Source: Minisyncoccota bacterium
GTDB lineage: Bacteria > Patescibacteriota > Minisyncoccia > Phycocordibacterales > UBA6065
Reading direction: 5' to 3'
Length of the DNA stretch: 64,000 bases
Assembly (NCBI GenBank): GCA_041661645.1
Contig: JBAZUA010000001.1
Span: forward strand, 192,189-256,188
Shown here: positions 4,357 to 48,551 of the stretch, piece by piece
Numbering within the stretch: the stretch's first letter is position 1
How the letters are laid out: the number at the start of each line of letters is the position of its first letter
Notes under the pieces: generated by a model
Databases searched by the model: none
What the model saw: only the letters and a program-made list of their open reading frames with translations
What the model was told of the DNA's origin: nothing
Program-made: the position numbers and the translations under genes

Positions 4357-4457
4357 GTTGGTTGGCCTCCTCAGGGTAGAACCGCGCTCGTCTAAACCGC
4401 TTTATGGTGGTTTAGACGTTCTTTATCGTATTAAAACAACCCATCTTGAGCGATGTG

Positions 4458-12317: not shown

Positions 12318-14645
12318 TTGCCACAATATATGTCCAAACTACTCATAGTCGAGTCCCCGGCAAAGGCCAAAACCATCGGAAAATACCTCGGTGACGGCTA
12401 TACCGTAGTCGCATCCATCGGGCACGTCCGCGACCTCCCGAAGTCCAACAAGAAGGCCATCGACATCGACCACGGCTTCAAACCGCACTACGAGGTGTCC
12501 CCCGGAAAGGACTCCGTCCTGTCCGACATATCGCGCCTCGCCAAGAAGTCCGACGAAATACTGCTCGCGACCGACCCCGACCGCGAGGGAGAGGCAATCG
12601 CTTGGCACATCGCCGAGGCGGTGAACTTCGGGAAGAAGCCCGTCCGCCGCGTCGTGTTCCACGAGATCACCAAGGACGCCATCATCGAGGCGCTCACCCA
12701 CCCCCGCGACATAGACCAGAACCTGCGCCAGGCGCAGGAGGCGCGACGCGTGCTCGACAGGCTCGTGGGATACGACCTCTCGGGCGTCATCTGGAAGAAG
12801 GTTCGCTACGGCCTCTCGGCGGGCCGCGTCCAGTCCCCCGCCCTCCGCATCATCATGGAGCGCGAGCGGGAGATTCGTGCCTTCAAACCCGAGACCTATT
12901 GGACCATCTCCGCGGAAACCAAAACTGAGAAGACTTCGGCGAAACCGAGCGAGACGCTCGCCCTCAACTGCTCCATCGAGCCTCGCGAGAAGGCCGAGGT
13001 GGATCGCATACTCAAGACGGGCAAGGCCGAAGAGTGGGAGGTCGTATCGGTTGACGAGACCGAGGCCAAACGCAGCCCGAAGGCCCCCTTCACCACCTCG
13101 ACCCTTCAGCAGGCGGCCTCGACCCGCCTCGGCTATTCCCCATCGCGCACCATGTCCGTCGCCCAGAGACTCTACGAGGCGGGACTCATCAGCTACATGC
13201 GAACCGACTCGACCAACCTCTCGCAGCAGGCCATCGGGCAAATCGCCTCATATATAGAGAAGGAATACGGCAAGGCATCGGTCAACCTCCGCACCTTTAC
13301 CGCAAAATCAAAGAACGCCCAGGAAGCCCACGAGGCAGTCAGGCCAACGACCATATCCAAAAAGAGCGCGGGAGCGAATCCCGAGCAGGTCGCCCTTTAC
13401 GGGCTCATCTGGGCCCGCACCGTCGCGTCGCAGATGGTCGACGCCCGCATACTCCGCACCAAGATAGTGGCGAACACCGTCACCAAGAGCATTCCCGACT
13501 TCCATGCCAACGGCACCAGGCTCGTATCGACGGGCTGGCTCGCCGTGGACCCCGGCGCCCGAGGCGAGGACGTCGAGCTCCCAAAGGTCACCGCCGGAGA
13601 GAAGCTCGAACTCGTATCCCTCGACTCCCTCGAGAAGCAGACCGAGCCGCCTGGCCGATATTCCGAGGCGGGACTCATCAAGGAACTCGAGAAGCGCGGC
13701 ATCGGACGGCCCTCCACCTACGCCTCGATCCTTCGCACCCTCGAGGAGCGCGAGTACGTCACCAAGGAGAACAAGGCCCTCAAGCCGACCGACACGGGCG
13801 ACGTGGTGTCGTCATTCCTCGAGGAGCATTTCGGCCCGTACATAAGCGACACCTTCACCGCCGAGATGGAGGACAAGCTCGACAAGATCGCCGAGGGGCT
13901 GATGGGCTACGAGAAGACCCTCTCCGATTTCTACAAGCCGTTTTCGAAGGACGTGAAGATAAAGGACGCGCTCGACAAGGCCACAACCCTTGGCGATGCC
14001 GATGCAAAGTTCAAATGCCCCACCTGCGGATCATCCATGATTGTGAAGCTCGGGCGGGCCGGCAAGTTCCTATCGTGCTCCCGCTACCCTGACTGCGCCG
14101 GCGCGCTCATGCTCGACGGCACCGAGGTCCCGAAGGACCGCATTGTCGGCACGCATCCGGACACAGGTCTCGACATCACCGTAAAGTCCGGACGCTTCGG
14201 CCCGTACGTGCAGATGGGAGAAACGATCAAGGCCCCTAAAAAGCCCCGCAAGAAGAAGCCTACTAAAAAAGAGCTGGCTAAACTCGCAGCCGACCTTGCA
14301 GCGGGCATTGCCCCAGCCGCCGCCTCGACCAGCGCGGAACCAGAGATCGTCGGTCAGAAGGCAAAGATGGCATCCATTCCAAAGGAGATCGACCCGACCT
14401 CAATCACCCTCGCCCAGGCCGTTCACCTGCTCACCCTTCCCCGACGCCTCGGCACCCATCCCGTGACGGAAAAAGTAATCACCGCGAACATCGGACGCTT
14501 CGGACCCTACATAGTCCATGACGGAGACTTCCGCTCGGTCAAGAAGCCTGACGATGTGTATACCATCAGCCTCGGGCGCGCGCTCGACATGCTCAAGGAG
14601 GAAAAGAAGAAGCGTGGATGGAGGGCGAAGAAGAAAGCGGAATAA
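12318..14645 (+). CDS. topA: DNA topoisomerase I
   Basis: TOPRIM domain LLIVESPAKAKTIGKYL. Active-site region and C-terminal zinc ribbons (CPTCGSSM...CSRYPDC). The true start is probably the internal ATG near 12328. Confidence 0.9.
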   Translation: MPQYMSKLLIVESPAKAKTIGKYLGDGYTVVASIGHVRDLPKSNKKAIDIDHGFKPHYEVSPGKDSVLSDISRLAKKSDEILLATDPDREGEAIAWHIAEAVNFGKKPVRRVVFHEITKDAIIEALTHPRDIDQNLRQAQEARRVLDRLVGYDLSGVIWKKVRYGLSAGRVQSPALRIIMEREREIRAFKPETYWTISAETKTEKTSAKPSETLALNCSIEPREKAEVDRILKTGKAEEWEVVSVDETEAKRSPKAPFTTSTLQQAASTRLGYSPSRTMSVAQRLYEAGLISYMRTDSTNLSQQAIGQIASYIEKEYGKASVNLRTFTAKSKNAQEAHEAVRPTTISKKSAGANPEQVALYGLIWARTVASQMVDARILRTKIVANTVTKSIPDFHANGTRLVSTGWLAVDPGARGEDVELPKVTAGEKLELVSLDSLEKQTEPPGRYSEAGLIKELEKRGIGRPSTYASILRTLEEREYVTKENKALKPTDTGDVVSSFLEEHFGPYISDTFTAEMEDKLDKIAEGLMGYEKTLSDFYKPFSKDVKIKDALDKATTLGDADAKFKCPTCGSSMIVKLGRAGKFLSCSRYPDCAGALMLDGTEVPKDRIVGTHPDTGLDITVKSGRFGPYVQMGETIKAPKKPRKKKPTKKELAKLAADLAAGIAPAAASTSAEPEIVGQKAKMASIPKEIDPTSITLAQAVHLLTLPRRLGTHPVTEKVITANIGRFGPYIVHDGDFRSVKKPDDVYTISLGRALDMLKEEKKKRGWRAKKKAE

Positions 14646-14647
14646 GG

Positions 14648-14687
14648 CCACGAAAAACACCTCAATCGATTGAGGTGTTTTTCGTGG
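14648..14687. terminator. Perfect 20+20 palindrome CCACGAAAAACACCTCAATC|GATTGAGGTGTTTTTCGTGG (copy 2 of the repeated hairpin element); bidirectional terminator after topA
   Basis: Seen directly. Shares its core with the 6828 and 47648 copies. Confidence 0.6.
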
Positions 14688-14724
14688 ACAGATACGGACA
14701 GACATTCAGACGAAATCATACTTA

Positions 14725-14753
14725 TTGACAATAACCATATTTAGGTGTATAAG
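14725..14753 (+). promoter_or_regulatory. Sigma70-type promoter TTGACA-17-TATAAG placed 9 nt before ATG 14763
   Basis: The consensus -35 and -10 with 17-nt spacer end 9 nt before the start codon. There is no room for an SD, so the mRNA is likely leaderless. Confidence 0.55.
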
Positions 14754-14762
14754 CTATGACGA

Positions 14763-44689: not shown

Positions 44690-45060
44690 AGTAGTAGCAT
44701 ACGGACCAAGGCCTAAGCTCCTTGGAAACAAAGAAAACTCGAATTCCTGGGCGTGAGCGCCCTCGAACAGGCCAAACCCGTCGTGCGGGCACGACGGGGG
44801 TTGCAGGACCTCAGCACAGGCCCATCTAGCGAACGGGTCCAGGGGCACCTAAGTAGCCTTTGTCCCAGCGCGAACGGGACAGGGGCGAATCCGGCAGACA
44901 ACCCCGCCACAAGTGTCCAACCGCACGCGTCGCAACGCGTGTACGAAGTGGCGACGGCGCTGCCAAGCCTAAATCCGACGAGCTTTTGCTGCATAGCCGC
45001 ACTCCTGCAGGGTGTGGCTATTTTGTTTGAGACATCCTCGTCACTTGCCAAACGAGCACG
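44690..45060. ncRNA. Candidate structured non-coding RNA (unassigned)
   Basis: An approximately 370-nt GC-rich non-coding stretch between divergent genes. It is packed with perfect hairpins: CCAAGG-ccuaagcu-CCUUGG, CCCGUCGU-gcgggc-ACGACGGG, ACGCG-ucgcaa-CGCGU, GUCCC-agcgcgaac-GGGAC. The ORFs in it are implausible. Confidence 0.3.
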
Positions 45061-45130
45061 CCTACTGCCTATGTCTATTTTTTATTTTCTCTTTATAGGT
45101 TTTCACTCCATCCCATAGCAAAATAAGCTC

Positions 45131-45547
45131 ATGCAGAGGAAGAACTCACCATCAAAACCATACGGCCAGCTCGCCACGAAAAGCGACGTGAGGGAAATTG
45201 TCACGGAAGTCATCGACAACTTTGCCATCATGATGAAACGCAGCTTCGACGACATCAACGATAGAATGGTGACAAAGGAAGAGTTCAACGAATTCAAGGC
45301 TGAAATGCATGAGTTCAAGGATGAGATGCATGAGTTCAAAACGAATATGCTTGAATTCAAAGACGGCACAGAACCAGCCCTATACAGCCTTCAAACGGAT
45401 ATGCTCGACGTCAAATCAAGACTAACAAAGGTAGAGACCGGACTGACGAACGTCGAAAACGGCGTCACATCCCTCACGGCGGCCGTGCGCAGCAACTGGC
45501 GTGATCACGAAGGTCGCATTACCAGACTCGAGGAGCGAGTCACCTGA
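45131..45547 (+). CDS. Coiled-coil repeat protein, paralog A
   Basis: N-terminal ATKSDVREIVTEV. Central EFKAEMHEFKDEMHEFKTNMLEFK repeats. C-terminal VRSNWRDHEGRITRLEERVT. Paralogous to 52296..52775. Confidence 0.5.
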   Translation: MQRKNSPSKPYGQLATKSDVREIVTEVIDNFAIMMKRSFDDINDRMVTKEEFNEFKAEMHEFKDEMHEFKTNMLEFKDGTEPALYSLQTDMLDVKSRLTKVETGLTNVENGVTSLTAAVRSNWRDHEGRITRLEERVT

Positions 45548-45667
45548 TTGAATGGGTCTATCGTGTAAAACCCTTTGCGGACATGGGTGATTTCCATATT
45601 TTGCACCCAGATTGACAGACCCCCTCATAAGAGTAGTCTTGTGAACAGGAAACCCAATGCTCATCAA

Positions 45668-46306
45668 ATGAATACCGTAACAGAATCAAACGAACTACAG
45701 GAAGTCAAATTCCTTAAACTGCAAATGACCAGACAGGCCGAACGGGCCAACAGCATGGTGGGGGAAATAAAAGACCTCTACCAAAAGCTGAGAACCGAGG
45801 AATGCCTAGAGGTCGAGATTACGGAAAAATACAACAAATCCGTGACGGCCCTCGTCATCGACGAAGCCGAACGCAGGGGCGTATCATTCTGCAGCCTCTG
45901 CGAAGAAGAAAGGCCGGCCTCGTCCATGGTCTGCGTGCTCTTCACGGGATCAAAGATCATAAGGATGGGAGACCACGGGACAGAGACAGAATATCTGAGG
46001 GACTTCTCCACGCCTCATCTGCTCTGCCCGACCTGCCTCGACACACACACCAAGAAAAGCGGCTGGATAGGACCATTCAACTCCATCGCCCAGGGTTCCG
46101 AGACGTTTTATCTCTGGCATACGGACAAGCGTTCGGACGGGCTTTACGCCCACGTCCTCGGATACAACAAGCTCGTGCCCGTAAAACCACCACAGGCGAT
46201 CCCGCCCGACAAGATAAACGAAAAGGCCTCGCAGTGGGGCCTTCCGACAACCATCGGGTTTCCCCACAGGAGACTTAATGAGCCCACGGAACGTGGCTGG
46301 GACTGA
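45668..46306 (+). CDS. Hypothetical protein with two CxxC pairs (possible zinc ribbon)
   Basis: CSLCEEE...CPTCLD. Start chosen at MNTVTESNEL. AT-richer than the core. A terminator follows at 46328-46365. Confidence 0.4.
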   Translation: MNTVTESNELQEVKFLKLQMTRQAERANSMVGEIKDLYQKLRTEECLEVEITEKYNKSVTALVIDEAERRGVSFCSLCEEERPASSMVCVLFTGSKIIRMGDHGTETEYLRDFSTPHLLCPTCLDTHTKKSGWIGPFNSIAQGSETFYLWHTDKRSDGLYAHVLGYNKLVPVKPPQAIPPDKINEKASQWGLPTTIGFPHRRLNEPTERGWD

Positions 46307-46327
46307 GCCCATCCCTCGGACAAGCAC

Positions 46328-46365
46328 ATGCGGGCCGGCGACCAAAGGTCGCCGGCCCTTTTACT
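46328..46365 (+). terminator. Intrinsic terminator (ggccggcgacc-aaa-ggtcgccggcc plus cttttacttt)
   Basis: Seen directly. Confidence 0.55.
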
Positions 46366-46521
46366 TTCACAAAAAGGACTTTACCGCGAGGCCCTTTCAT
46401 GCTAACCTCTTCCCTACCTGACTTTTCGTCAGTTTTTATTTTTCACCGGCTTCGGTAACCCTTTCTCAGGACCACTTGCAACGAGCATCGAGAGGAAGCA
46501 CCGAAACGGACCTTTAATATC

Positions 46522-47613
46522 ATGGCAGAAGAAATCAAGAAGGCGGAGCCGACCACGCTCATGGGCAAATTGCTCAATGACACGGCCACCCCACCAAATG
46601 TCGGCGACCTCATCGAGGGAACCGTCATCGCTATCGACAAGAAGGGCGTCTTCATAGACCTCCCCCCATTCGGTACCGGCATCATCTACGGACGCGAGTA
46701 CATCGTCGCCCGAGACGTCATCAAGAAGATCAACGTCGGCGACAAGGTCGCTGCGAAGATCGTCGATGCGTCAAACAAAGACGGCTATATCGAGCTTTCC
46801 CTCAAGGAGGCCCGACAGGCCCTCATCTGGACCGAGGCCGAGCTCGCCATCGTCGAGAAGAAGATCCTCGAGCTCCCTATCAAGGAGGCAAACAAGGGCG
46901 GACTCATCATCGAGTGGCAGGGCATCCAGGGATTCCTTCCCGCCTCCCAGCTCAAGCCCGAGCATTACCCACGCGTTCAGGACGGTGACAAGGATCGCAT
47001 CCTCGAGGAGCTCAAGAAGCTCGTCGGCACCAAGCTCGCCGTATCGATCATCGGCGCATTCCCCAAGGAAGGCAAGCTCATCTTCTCCGAGAAGAACTCT
47101 GAGCAGAAGGACAAGACCGAGCAGGTCGCCAAGTTCAAGGTCGGCGACGACGTTGAGGGAAAGGTCACCGGCATGGTTGACTTCGGAGTCTTCGTCAAGA
47201 TCGACGAGGGTCTCGAGGGTCTCGTTCACATCTCAGAGATTGACTGGGCACTCGTCGAGGATCCAAAGACCCGCTTCAAGGTAGGCGACAAGGTCAAGGT
47301 CCGCGTCATCGAGATCAAGGACGGCAAGGTCTCCCTCTCCATCAAGGCCCTCAAGCCAAACCCATGGGTAGAGGCGGGCAAGAAGTACAAGAAGGAGCAG
47401 ATCGTGAAGGGCGTCGTCATCAAGTTCAATCGACACGGCGCGCTCGCCTCGATCGAGGAAGGCATCGCGGGCCTCGTCCACGTTTCCGAATTCGGAACCG
47501 AGGAGAAGCTCCGACAGAACCTCGAGCTCGGCAAGACCTACAGCTTCAAGATCACCCTCTTCGATGCTGGCAGCCAGAAGATGACCCTTGCCTTCGCGGG
47601 AGAGAAGAAGTAA
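46522..47613 (+). CDS. rpsA: 30S ribosomal protein S1 (four S1 domains)
   Basis: Repeated S1/OB motifs (GDLIEGTVIAIDKKGVFIDL, GDDVEGKVTGMVDFGVFVKI, GDKVKVRVIEIKDGKVSLSI). Confidence 0.85.
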   Translation: MAEEIKKAEPTTLMGKLLNDTATPPNVGDLIEGTVIAIDKKGVFIDLPPFGTGIIYGREYIVARDVIKKINVGDKVAAKIVDASNKDGYIELSLKEARQALIWTEAELAIVEKKILELPIKEANKGGLIIEWQGIQGFLPASQLKPEHYPRVQDGDKDRILEELKKLVGTKLAVSIIGAFPKEGKLIFSEKNSEQKDKTEQVAKFKVGDDVEGKVTGMVDFGVFVKIDEGLEGLVHISEIDWALVEDPKTRFKVGDKVKVRVIEIKDGKVSLSIKALKPNPWVEAGKKYKKEQIVKGVVIKFNRHGALASIEEGIAGLVHVSEFGTEEKLRQNLELGKTYSFKITLFDAGSQKMTLAFAGEKK

Positions 47614-47647
47614 TCAGGACTCAATAGAACGGCTCACGTAAGCCACA

Positions 47648-47680
47648 TAAAACACCTCAACCCATTGAGGTGTTTTACTT
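47648..47680 (+). terminator. Terminator hairpin AAAACACCTCAA-CCCA-TTGAGGTGTTTT plus acttt (copy 3 of the repeated element)
   Basis: Seen directly, after rpsA. Confidence 0.55.
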
Positions 47681-47699
47681 TGGCCCGGACAGGTTGACT

Positions 47700-48177
47700 A
47701 GAGACCTAGAAAAGGTACCATTTTGAATGGACGCAGATGCTCGAAATCCCGACACATCGCCAAGTGATCATGCCCGAAGGATGATTGCGAAGGAGCAAGA
47801 GGCGACTAAGGTTGCACGGTTTGGTTGACCACACCAGGGTCCCCACCCGGCCGATGTCCCTCTAAGATGGAGGGGCAGAATGTCTTGATCTGAGGGGCTC
47901 GTTGTGACCTCACATGAAATAGGTACACGGCCAGCTTGGTATCAAGCGATTCGGAGGATCCGTCCGGCGAAGAGCACGAGGAAAAGCACTCAGAGGGTGG
48001 GAACAGCGTCGATTGACATCCGCTGTTCCCACCCTAGCCCTTTCCACCCAACATCATTTTGCTATACTTATGGCCTGCGACAAGCCTGAGGACAGACACT
48101 CAACCAAACTCGCAGCAGGCAGGCGACGCCTTCGGTCGCCTGCCCACCACTTTAGTTCTTTCTGACTCTCAAGAGAA
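47700..48177. ncRNA. Candidate structured non-coding region (unassigned), ending at a bidirectional terminator
   Basis: About 480 nt with no convincing ORF. Strong hairpins: GGGAACAGCG-ucgauugacauc-CGCUGUUCCC, and GGCAGGCGAC-gccuucg-GUCGCCUGCC with a UUCG loop. A CCCUC-uaagaug-GAGGG hairpin is also present. Confidence 0.25.
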
Positions 48178-48212
48178 AAGCGCCCCATCGAATGGGGCGC
48201 TTTTGATGTCAG
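48178..48212. terminator. Bidirectional intrinsic terminator (gcgcccc-atcgaat-ggggcgc flanked by A- and T-runs)
   Basis: Seen directly. Confidence 0.55.
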
Positions 48213-48225
48213 GAAGCTGAGACAG

Positions 48226-48459
48226 TCACCTCCCGCCAAAGCCTTCGGAGAACAGCGCGCTGATATCGATCAGGACAAGGGTGCACAGAACGCCGAAGGC
48301 GATGATCAGAAAGAAGAGGACAATGAGACATCTGCCGAGAACGTGTCGCCAGAGCTTTTCCTTGTCGCACAGGTGCCTTCCCCAGCCGATAAACCAGGTG
48401 ATGACGGCCGCCACGATAAGGGAGACCAGGACCGGATAGATGATTTCTATGATTCTCAC
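48226..48459 (-). CDS. Small membrane protein (two TM, 77 aa)
   Basis: Hydrophobic ORF ending just before the terminator. Confidence 0.35.
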   Translation of the reverse strand: MRIIEIIYPVLVSLIVAAVITWFIGWGRHLCDKEKLWRHVLGRCLIVLFFLIIAFGVLCTLVLIDISALFSEGFGGR

Positions 48460-48551
48460 GAGTAAGCTTTCGTTGATAGGTTAAGAACGCCACCGTAAAG
48501 CCTACGCCTCCCGCGGATGAAGTCAATCGCCCTTGTCGCCAGAGGGACGAC

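Follow-up and report, generated by a model that had tools for sequence, protein, structure and literature searches.

A probable non-coding RNA gene with a boxA-like motif beside rpsA in Paceibacteria

Which element separates the convergent genes rpsA and pth in a member of the Paceibacteria (Patescibacteria/candidate phyla radiation, CPR), when many of its relatives have only 35-80 nucleotides (nt) between them? We studied positions 47700-48212 of a 64-kb window (the whole stretch of 64,000 nt analyzed, from contig JBAZUA010000001.1 of a Minisyncoccota bacterium), which lie between the terminator of rpsA and the terminator on the pth side and were read on the + strand. An earlier note on this DNA had described a non-coding segment with very stable hairpins that could be either a second housekeeping RNA or a degraded gene. 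Our analysis indicates that the region is most likely an independent non-coding RNA (ncRNA) gene of approximately 480 nt on the + strand (47694-48204), very probably belonging to a lineage-specific RNA family, and this family appears to be undescribed and of moderate interest.

The predicted transcription unit between rpsA and pth

The gene order mbl(-), rpsA(+), pth(-), lepB(+), hisS(+) is kept across approximately 160 related loci (designated L with a number). The convergent gap of 35-80 nt found in many of them is, as judged from this comparison, the ancestral state in Paceibacteria, and the remaining relatives have gaps of 200-1100 nt, whose sequences proved mostly unrelated in an all-against-all gap comparison. 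In the window the gap measures 938 nt and contains the ncRNA region together with small77, a small open reading frame (ORF). Considering the short gap in so many relatives, the region is to be regarded as an insertion and not as ancestral sequence. Searching it with blastn and nhmmer against 80 and then 164 related loci returned matches only in L085 and, later, in L166.

A promoter scan yielded two sites, compared with 0.4 ± 0.6 expected (Table 1). The upstream promoter P1 aligns with TTGACC-16-TAGTAT or TATGAT in L085, L166 and L169, and matching -35 and -10 boxes at the same spacing are present in L001, L002, L005, L008, L086, L089, L006 and L176, too; overall, the promoter is kept at the matching place in more than 12 genomes. 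The second, internal site could give rise to a short RNA of approximately 130 nt, and its TATACT is present at the aligned place in L166. Both terminators recognized in the earlier note were recovered, that of rpsA as a hairpin of CACCTCAA and TTGAGGTG accompanied by A and T tracts (47649-47676), and the bidirectional one as GCGCCCCAT-CGA-ATGGGGCGC (48180-48200), with an A tract on one side and a T tract on the other. The latter is kept in L084, an 88% identical relative, with one base pair flipped.

The claim of a very stable structure was borne out, as 47685-48215 folds at -212.9 kcal/mol versus -170.7 ± 6.8 for dinucleotide shuffles, corresponding to z-scores of -6.25 on the + strand and -4.98 on the - strand, to which both terminators contribute. 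In agreement with the described lack of a convincing ORF, the longest one inside the region encodes 61 amino acids (aa), with no Pfam match at E<=0.1. The individual stems required some revision. The 10-bp 'GGGAACAGCG' stem exists but is in fact 14 bp long (GGGTGGGAACAGCG/CGCTGTTCCCACCC) with a 12-nt loop (hairpin 1), and the 10 bp of GGCAGGCGAC/GTCGCCTGCC (hairpin 2) are present as described, although not capped by a closed C(UUCG)G tetraloop, as the UUCG is part of the 7-nt loop GCCUUCG. CCCTC/GAGGG (47858-47862 and 47870-47874) and the partial segment GGAAAAGCACTC (47980-47991) were found as well, and the small hairpin formed by the former (47858-47874) shows no alignment with relatives.

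Particularly the two long hairpins and the 5' part carry signs of constraint. In the orthologue of hairpin 1 in L166 all 10 basal pairs are kept, with double substitutions from T-A to C-G and from A-T to G-C, and hairpin 2 retains 10/10 basal pairs with compensatory changes in L166, L085 and L169. Conservation in L085, L166 and L169 extends over the first 100-175 nt of the RNA, with an identity of 73% to L166 over approximately 175 nt and of 72-75% to L085. Within this 5' domain a long-range stem of GUGAUC (47764-47769) and GGUUGC (47810-47815) encloses a hairpin (47764-47788) and a stretch resembling helix 11 of 16S ribosomal RNA (rRNA; 47792-47815), and compensatory (double) changes affect 6 of 15 consensus pairs in two helices among four genomes.

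Table 1 Features of the rpsA-pth gap and its borders in the window
Feature	Position	Strand	Remarks
rpsA	46522-47613	+	three S1 domains
rpsA intrinsic terminator, AAAACACCTCAA-CCCA-TTGAGGTGTTTT	47649..47676	+	5' edge of unit; kept in L085, L166
Promoter P1, TTGACT-16 nt-TACCAT	47694..47721	+	promoter scan; inferred start ~47728
Conserved 5' domain	47729..47820	+	GGAC...UCCC, invariant CUCGAAAUYCC, long-range stem
Small hairpin, CCCTC-TAAGATG-GAGGG	47858..47874	+	in poorly conserved middle 47820-47990
Hairpin 1, GC-rich 14-bp stem	47995..48034 (arms 47995-48008, 48021-48034)	+	12-nt loop
Pyrimidine-rich single-stranded tract UAGCCCUUUCCACCCAAC, variant 'CUUUCC' box	48035..48052	+	after hairpin 1
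Internal promoter-like site, TTTCCA-16 nt-TGcTATACT (extended -10)	48041..48068	+	promoter scan; use uncertain
Hairpin 2, GGCAGGCGAC-GCCUUCG-GUCGCCUGCC, boxB-like	48118..48144 (arms 48118-48127, 48135-48144)	+	sequence
Spacer CACCAC and boxA-like motif UUUAGUUCUUUC	48145..48162 (motif 48151-48162)	+	after hairpin 2
Bidirectional intrinsic terminator	48176..48204	both	would end the ncRNA on +, pth-small77 operon on -
small77	48226-48459	-	77 aa, two-helix membrane protein, own conserved promoter

A hairpin-box module beside rpsA in related genomes

Reading the gaps of relatives side by side, we found that more than 15 related genomes carry one to three tandem units adjoining rpsA, each running from a promoter through a variable 5' part, a long GC-rich hairpin and a C/A-rich spacer to a short box and an intrinsic terminator. 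The unit promoter follows directly after the preceding terminator and is near consensus (TTGACA/T, 16-17 nt, TAnnAT), the spacer of 5-7 nt leads into UU(U/A)GUUCUUUA, and the intrinsic terminator stands 10-50 nt further on. L008 has three such units, L005 two or three, L001 and L013 two, and L002, L085, L086, L169 and L173 one each. A variant tail, consisting of CUUUCC or another pyrimidine-rich tract, characterizes L166, L176, L089, L014, L007 and hairpin 1 of the window, and in L166, L176, L014 and L007 the tract following the hairpin is similar to that of the window. Moreover, in the more distant L101, L033, L122 and L162 the hairpin-box unit is located upstream of rpsA and co-oriented with it, in L033 as the opening element of a 300-nt RNA unit.

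Since MAFFT gave no common stem register, the module was assessed by scanning directly for hairpins and for the motif. In 8.9 kb of gap sequence, the + strand contains the core G[TC]TCTTT 15 times versus 1.7 ± 1.25 times in shuffles (maximum 6 in 300), representing an approximately 9-fold enrichment, with 5 occurrences on the - strand. Across all loci, 16 perfect GC hairpins are followed by the core, nearly all of them beside rpsA and co-oriented with it, and in 13 of these 16 cases the core lies 8-13 nt 3' of the stem. The hairpin sequences differ completely among genomes, yet they are fully paired and show double substitutions between orthologues; by this comparison, the hairpins are under selection. 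Overall, the analysis supports the non-coding status, the promoter, the terminator, the covariation of the hairpins, the enrichment of the motif and the linkage to rpsA.

Judged by its letters, the family motif GUUCUUUA equals the boxA core GYUCUUUA, and the exact core is present in at least 12 relatives; the published boxA consensus is GYTCTTTAANA (PMC5725501). The window core GUUCUUUC (48155-48162) matches the published core GYUCUUUA at 7 of 8 positions, and hairpin 2 ends 10 nt before this core. Leaders and spacers of rRNA operons (rrn) display a boxB-boxA-boxC arrangement (PMC10250234, PMC10931766), and PMC3177189 gives an 8-nt boxA as the element recognized by NusB-NusE. Furthermore, S1 of E. 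coli binds boxA RNA specifically (Mogridge & Greenblatt 1998, as cited in PMC8632103), which makes the constant linkage to rpsA suggestive.

The 5' parts of some relatives resemble 16S rRNA. Those of L001, L085 and L002 are similar to helix 11; a family profile matched E. coli 16S 246-282 (helix 11) with E = 2.6e-5, and the 5' part of L085 alone matched helix 11 with E = 0.028. In L001 (metagenome-assembled genome (MAG) DASWWW010000005, 5179-5281) a 41-nt stretch is 83% identical to 16S 243-282 (helix 11) and a 23-nt stretch (22/23, 96%) matches E. coli 16S 410-432 (helix 16; match region 404-434), with helix 16 placed before helix 11, the reverse of the order in 16S. The helix-11-like stretch of the window is degenerate and has no significant 16S match on its own, and a correspondence of 47826-47880 to 16S 310-360 noticed by eye was rejected as not significant; the 16S likeness thus holds for relatives only. 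There is no rRNA gene within the window or any related locus examined.

None of the unit members examined matches an Rfam family, and our literature search returned no report of boxA-bearing, rpsA-linked or structured ncRNAs in Patescibacteria. The components are of known kinds; it is their stand-alone, tandemly duplicating combination beside rpsA that is new.

L033 (Kaiserbacteria MAG PFBJ01000019, 2995-3800) has two successive promoter-to-terminator units of approximately 300 and 340 nt upstream of rpsA, neither with an Rfam family match, the first of which starts with hairpin and boxA and continues as a very C-rich RNA. In L162 (1960-2225) a hairpin-GUUCUUU module at the transcript start is followed by an ORF of approximately 32 aa with a Shine-Dalgarno sequence; here the boxA-like site lies in a 5' untranslated region (UTR) and comes nearer to the suhB-type arrangement. 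In the window itself, a second hairpin GTCTAAACCGC-TTTA-TGGTGGTTTAGAC at 4390-4425 (+) leads directly into GTTCTTTA. This site follows a terminator in an intergenic region between convergent genes, has no obvious promoter and may represent either a further boxA-like element or a coincidence.

Proposed function and rival explanations

Our best explanation, which we hold tentatively and at somewhat less than even confidence, is an rpsA-linked ncRNA gene acting through a protein-bound box. An RNA gene would have been inserted between convergent rpsA and pth, and would be transcribed from a sigma-70 promoter directly 3' of the rpsA terminator up to the terminator it has in common with the pth-small77 operon. 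The predicted RNA would comprise a conserved 5' stem domain, a fast-changing middle and two long GC hairpins. A single-stranded tract rich in pyrimidines would come after each hairpin, the final tract being a boxA-like sequence separated by 17 nt from the terminator stem. Hairpin and box would together copy the boxB-boxA signal of rRNA leaders, and based on this likeness the RNA probably works via protein binding at the exposed box. The candidates for this binding are NusB-S10, which is known to read boxA, and the ribosomal protein S1 encoded next door; their binding could either load Nus factors onto the polymerase making the RNA or sequester NusB-S10 or S1. Taken separately, binding of NusB-S10 and/or S1 by the exposed box between two hairpins appears possible but doubtful; transcription, protein binding and any regulatory effect are what we infer from the sequence. 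A further idea, which we regard as improbable, is that the units are 'mini-rrn' decoys with rRNA-type promoters, boxA for NusB-S10/S1 and helix 11/16 mimics for small-subunit proteins, which would buffer free ribosomal proteins and Nus factors and tune ribosome production, the rpsA linkage reflecting a dedicated S1-RNA partnership. Patescibacteria/CPR have tiny genomes with one rRNA operon, and such decoys would, if real, serve ultra-small bacteria with a single rRNA operon.

Several observations weigh against the proposed protein-binding RNA. Position 8 of the window box is off consensus (C; GUUCUUUC), and the box is located at the 3' end, with approximately 425 nt separating it from the inferred start and 17 nt from the stem of the terminator. 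A classical antitermination signal precedes the RNA it protects, and a position just before an intrinsic terminator is therefore the wrong place for it; the classical order, with the box ahead of a long RNA, was found in L033 only. L166, although a 94% relative, has no box, and its hairpin 2 orthologue, directly followed by a U tract, is by its sequence a plain terminator. In addition, ordinary terminators of the clade end in UUUUUGUUU, so that the motif could in part be terminator-like. The central portion of the RNA (47820-47990) is unalignable even at 94-96% rpsA identity, and L084 (the 88% relative) differs just upstream of the terminator, indicating that constraint is weak or turnover fast. 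Finally, the covariation evidence comes from four sequences only, and transcription is deduced from consensus signals only.

Regarding the identities proposed in the earlier note, the structured and non-coding nature of the locus was upheld, whereas neither a housekeeping RNA nor a gene remnant found support. Rfam scans of the whole window at the gathering score returned transfer RNAs only, and scans of 47550-48300 (751 nt) at E<=10 gave only weak generic hairpin or terminator matches (ctRNA/terminator type at the second terminator), with no transfer-messenger RNA (tmRNA), RNase P, 6S, signal recognition particle (SRP) or other family; 15 related loci likewise showed no family match beyond such weak generic types, and ARAGORN detected no tmRNA in the 64 kb. 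A tmRNA is recognized by an acceptor stem with G3:U70, a T arm, a 3' CCA context and a tag reading frame. Pairing GGGGCAG (47872-47878) with CUGCCC-ACCA (48140-48149) by eye places C at position 70, without G3:U70, and a tmRNA reading of the 'GCCCACCA' end has no T arm or T loop and an atypical tag, with ARAGORN and Rfam both negative. RNase P RNA has universal P4 core sequences and a type A or B fold; no Rfam match was obtained, and GGAAAAGCAC at 47980 is merely a partial look-alike of GGAAAGUCC. Likewise, 6S RNA, a rod of approximately 180 nt with a central bubble mimicking an open promoter, gave no Rfam match, and the predicted fold of the region is multi-hairpin and not a single rod. A degraded gene was rejected because no ORF inside the region has a Pfam match, tblastn with the 159-aa neighbour protein of L085 matched only its small77 part while the extra half is traceless in the window, and relatives differ in the conserved 5' segment by indels that are not a multiple of three (a 2-nt indel), giving different reading frames. 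The comparison of orthologous regions revealed the promoter and lineage-specific rpsA-linked units instead of a gene remnant or a housekeeping RNA. A highly divergent housekeeping RNA (tmRNA, RNase P RNA, 6S or SRP RNA) or a frameshifted gene remnant is consequently considered extremely unlikely: the strong structure, the non-coding character and the presence of the partial GGAAAAGCAC motif and the ...GCCCACCA stretch would fit, but besides the negative scans, insert-free close relatives would be left without an essential RNA at this site, sequence turnover is much too fast, and protein similarity and a conserved reading frame are both absent.

The main rival to a protein-binding RNA is a trans-acting, base-pairing small RNA (sRNA), in which UUGUUCUUU or the CUUUCC tract would be the seed for purine-rich ribosome-binding regions of messenger RNAs and the boxA likeness would be coincidental. 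We judge it unlikely. In its favor, the unit has its own promoter and a Rho-independent terminator, its most conserved element is a short unpaired tract between a GC clamp and the terminator hairpin with the rest evolving fast, as is typical of sRNAs, and an anti-Shine-Dalgarno-like CCUCC is found just 5' of the box in some relatives (L013 unit 2, L089). However, the 64-kb window, which covers a small fraction of the genome, contains no site complementary to the box in any other place (one match, the box itself, versus 1.26 expected), a conserved 8-mer exactly matching a universal protein-binding element is hardly expected by chance, and the constant rpsA linkage would be left unexplained. Rather improbable, in turn, is an evolutionary leftover with little or no function, that is, a partial duplicate of an rRNA operon (promoter, 16S pieces, spacer boxB-boxA) beside rpsA, which is decaying, duplicating and being reshuffled, and whose hairpins and U-rich tracts survive mainly as terminators protecting convergent genes. 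The co-occurrence of 16S helix 11 and helix 16 pieces with a boxA-type motif, the extreme turnover with 0 to 3 units per genome, the hairpin-box turned plain terminator in L166 and the many close relatives without any insert are consistent with such a leftover. On the other hand, in more than 12 genomes every unit has retained a near-consensus promoter, and compensatory changes have preserved the 5' domain as well as both hairpins, although the flanking non-coding DNA of the genomes compared cannot otherwise be aligned; neutral decay would have destroyed these promoters and paired elements first, and the 16S-like pieces of L001 do not follow rRNA order (helix 16 before helix 11). Finally, the RNA might be the antitoxin of a type I toxin-antitoxin-like pair with small77 as toxin, controlled via the shared terminator or 3' overlap as in par/Fst. 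The small77 gene, which encodes a two-helix membrane protein of 77 aa and has a conserved promoter of its own, runs toward the RNA up to a single terminator common to both, and comparable small membrane ORFs are located after pth in many relatives. Nevertheless, the RNA is found without such an ORF in L001, L002, L176, L007, L006, L014 and L089 and the ORF without the RNA in at least two relatives (L175, L090), the overlap is confined to the terminator, and the L085 homologue with 159 aa and four helices is unlike a type I toxin. As RNA and ORF do not reliably co-occur in relatives, the pairing was rejected, and we regard it as very unlikely.

Comparison with known systems and observations on the neighborhood

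The rrn antitermination signal, consisting of boxB hairpin, boxA and boxC, is read by NusB-S10 together with NusA, NusG, SuhB and S4. The putative unit resembles the rrn leader and spacer signals in its strong sigma-70 promoter, in a hairpin of variable sequence just upstream of the box (48118-48144 in the window) and in the predicted single-stranded GYUCUUUA core a few nt downstream, and it further resembles rrn leaders in the tandem promoters and in the 16S-like sequence associated with it in relatives. In contrast to an rrn leader, the window box is 3'-terminal before an intrinsic terminator instead of promoter-proximal ahead of a long untranslated RNA, neither rRNA nor another long RNA lies downstream, boxC was not identified and position 8 of the box is C.

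In E. coli, boxA also occurs outside rRNA, namely in the 5' UTR of suhB and at predicted sites upstream of other genes (Baniulyte et al. 2017, PMC5725501); these non-rRNA sites repress a protein gene from a position <=50 nt ahead of its start codon, ncRNAs being outside that survey (PMC5725501). Nus-factor sites can thus have non-rRNA roles. The units of this study share with suhB-type sites the identical 8-nt core used outside an rRNA operon, but there is no ORF after the window box, L162 with its small ORF being a possible exception.

Further comparisons concern RNAs encoded beside the gene of their protein partner, such as Y RNA/rsr and tmRNA/smpB, and sponges of the CsrB type. Like these, the putative RNA is small, structured, predicted to be independently transcribed and linked to the gene of an RNA-binding protein, rpsA, and its sole strongly conserved feature is a short exposed motif of the protein-binding type. 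Unlike CsrB-type sponges it has one box per unit instead of many repeats, and a partnership with S1 would rest on the rpsA linkage alone. The likeness of the 5' parts of L001, L085 and L002 to helix 11, and of L001 to helix 16 as well, recalls the rRNA-mimicking leaders of ribosomal protein genes; however, in the clade of the window the unit does not precede a ribosomal protein gene, the helix-11-like stretch of the window is degenerate and the 16S pieces are out of order. With par/Fst loci the region shares a convergent RNA and small hydrophobic ORF with a common bidirectional terminator, yet RNA and ORF occur independently in relatives and extended complementarity is absent.

To our knowledge, almost nothing is known about regulatory RNAs of Patescibacteria/CPR. 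A stand-alone, strongly promoted boxB-boxA RNA beside the S1 gene, if real, would be the first boxA-bearing small RNA and would provide a concrete handle on the coupling of transcription factors, S1 and ribosome synthesis in these organisms. Even with a modest function, the locus illustrates the speed of birth, duplication and turnover of RNA genes at a convergent-gene junction, in a family missed by current RNA libraries.

Concerning the neighboring gene small77, its promoter (TTGACT-16-TAGGCT) and 5' UTR (48226-48551, -) are more conserved with L084 than its coding sequence, and the 5' UTR contains a boxA-like string GCGUUCUUAAC approximately 25 nt ahead of the GTG start codon. Among 5.8 billion proteins, only two clusters of homologues were found, and the four-helix, 159-aa homologue of L085 has the motif W(F)IGWGRHLCDK in common with small77.

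On the other side of rpsA, the 1.7 kb between mbl and rpsA (44848-46522) form a second variable hotspot with lineage-specific ORFs, one for a 138-aa coiled-coil-like protein with the repeated 'EFK..EMHEFK' and one for a Cys-containing protein of approximately 215-243 aa, both without a Pfam match and without a counterpart in 80 genome loci. A JGI contig of the same strain (L081/L083) is 99.96% identical to the window over 4.6 kb and differs at 48150 by a C-to-A exchange in the spacer just 5' of the box (CACCAC versus CACCAA). A repeat or mobile element was also rejected as an identity of the region, as only the rpsA terminator resembles another site in the window. This other site, the terminator at 14647-14681 (within 14640-14760), is 88% identical to the rpsA terminator and is followed by a near-consensus promoter, TTGACA-17-TATAAG, which suggests a recurring terminator-promoter junction in this genome.

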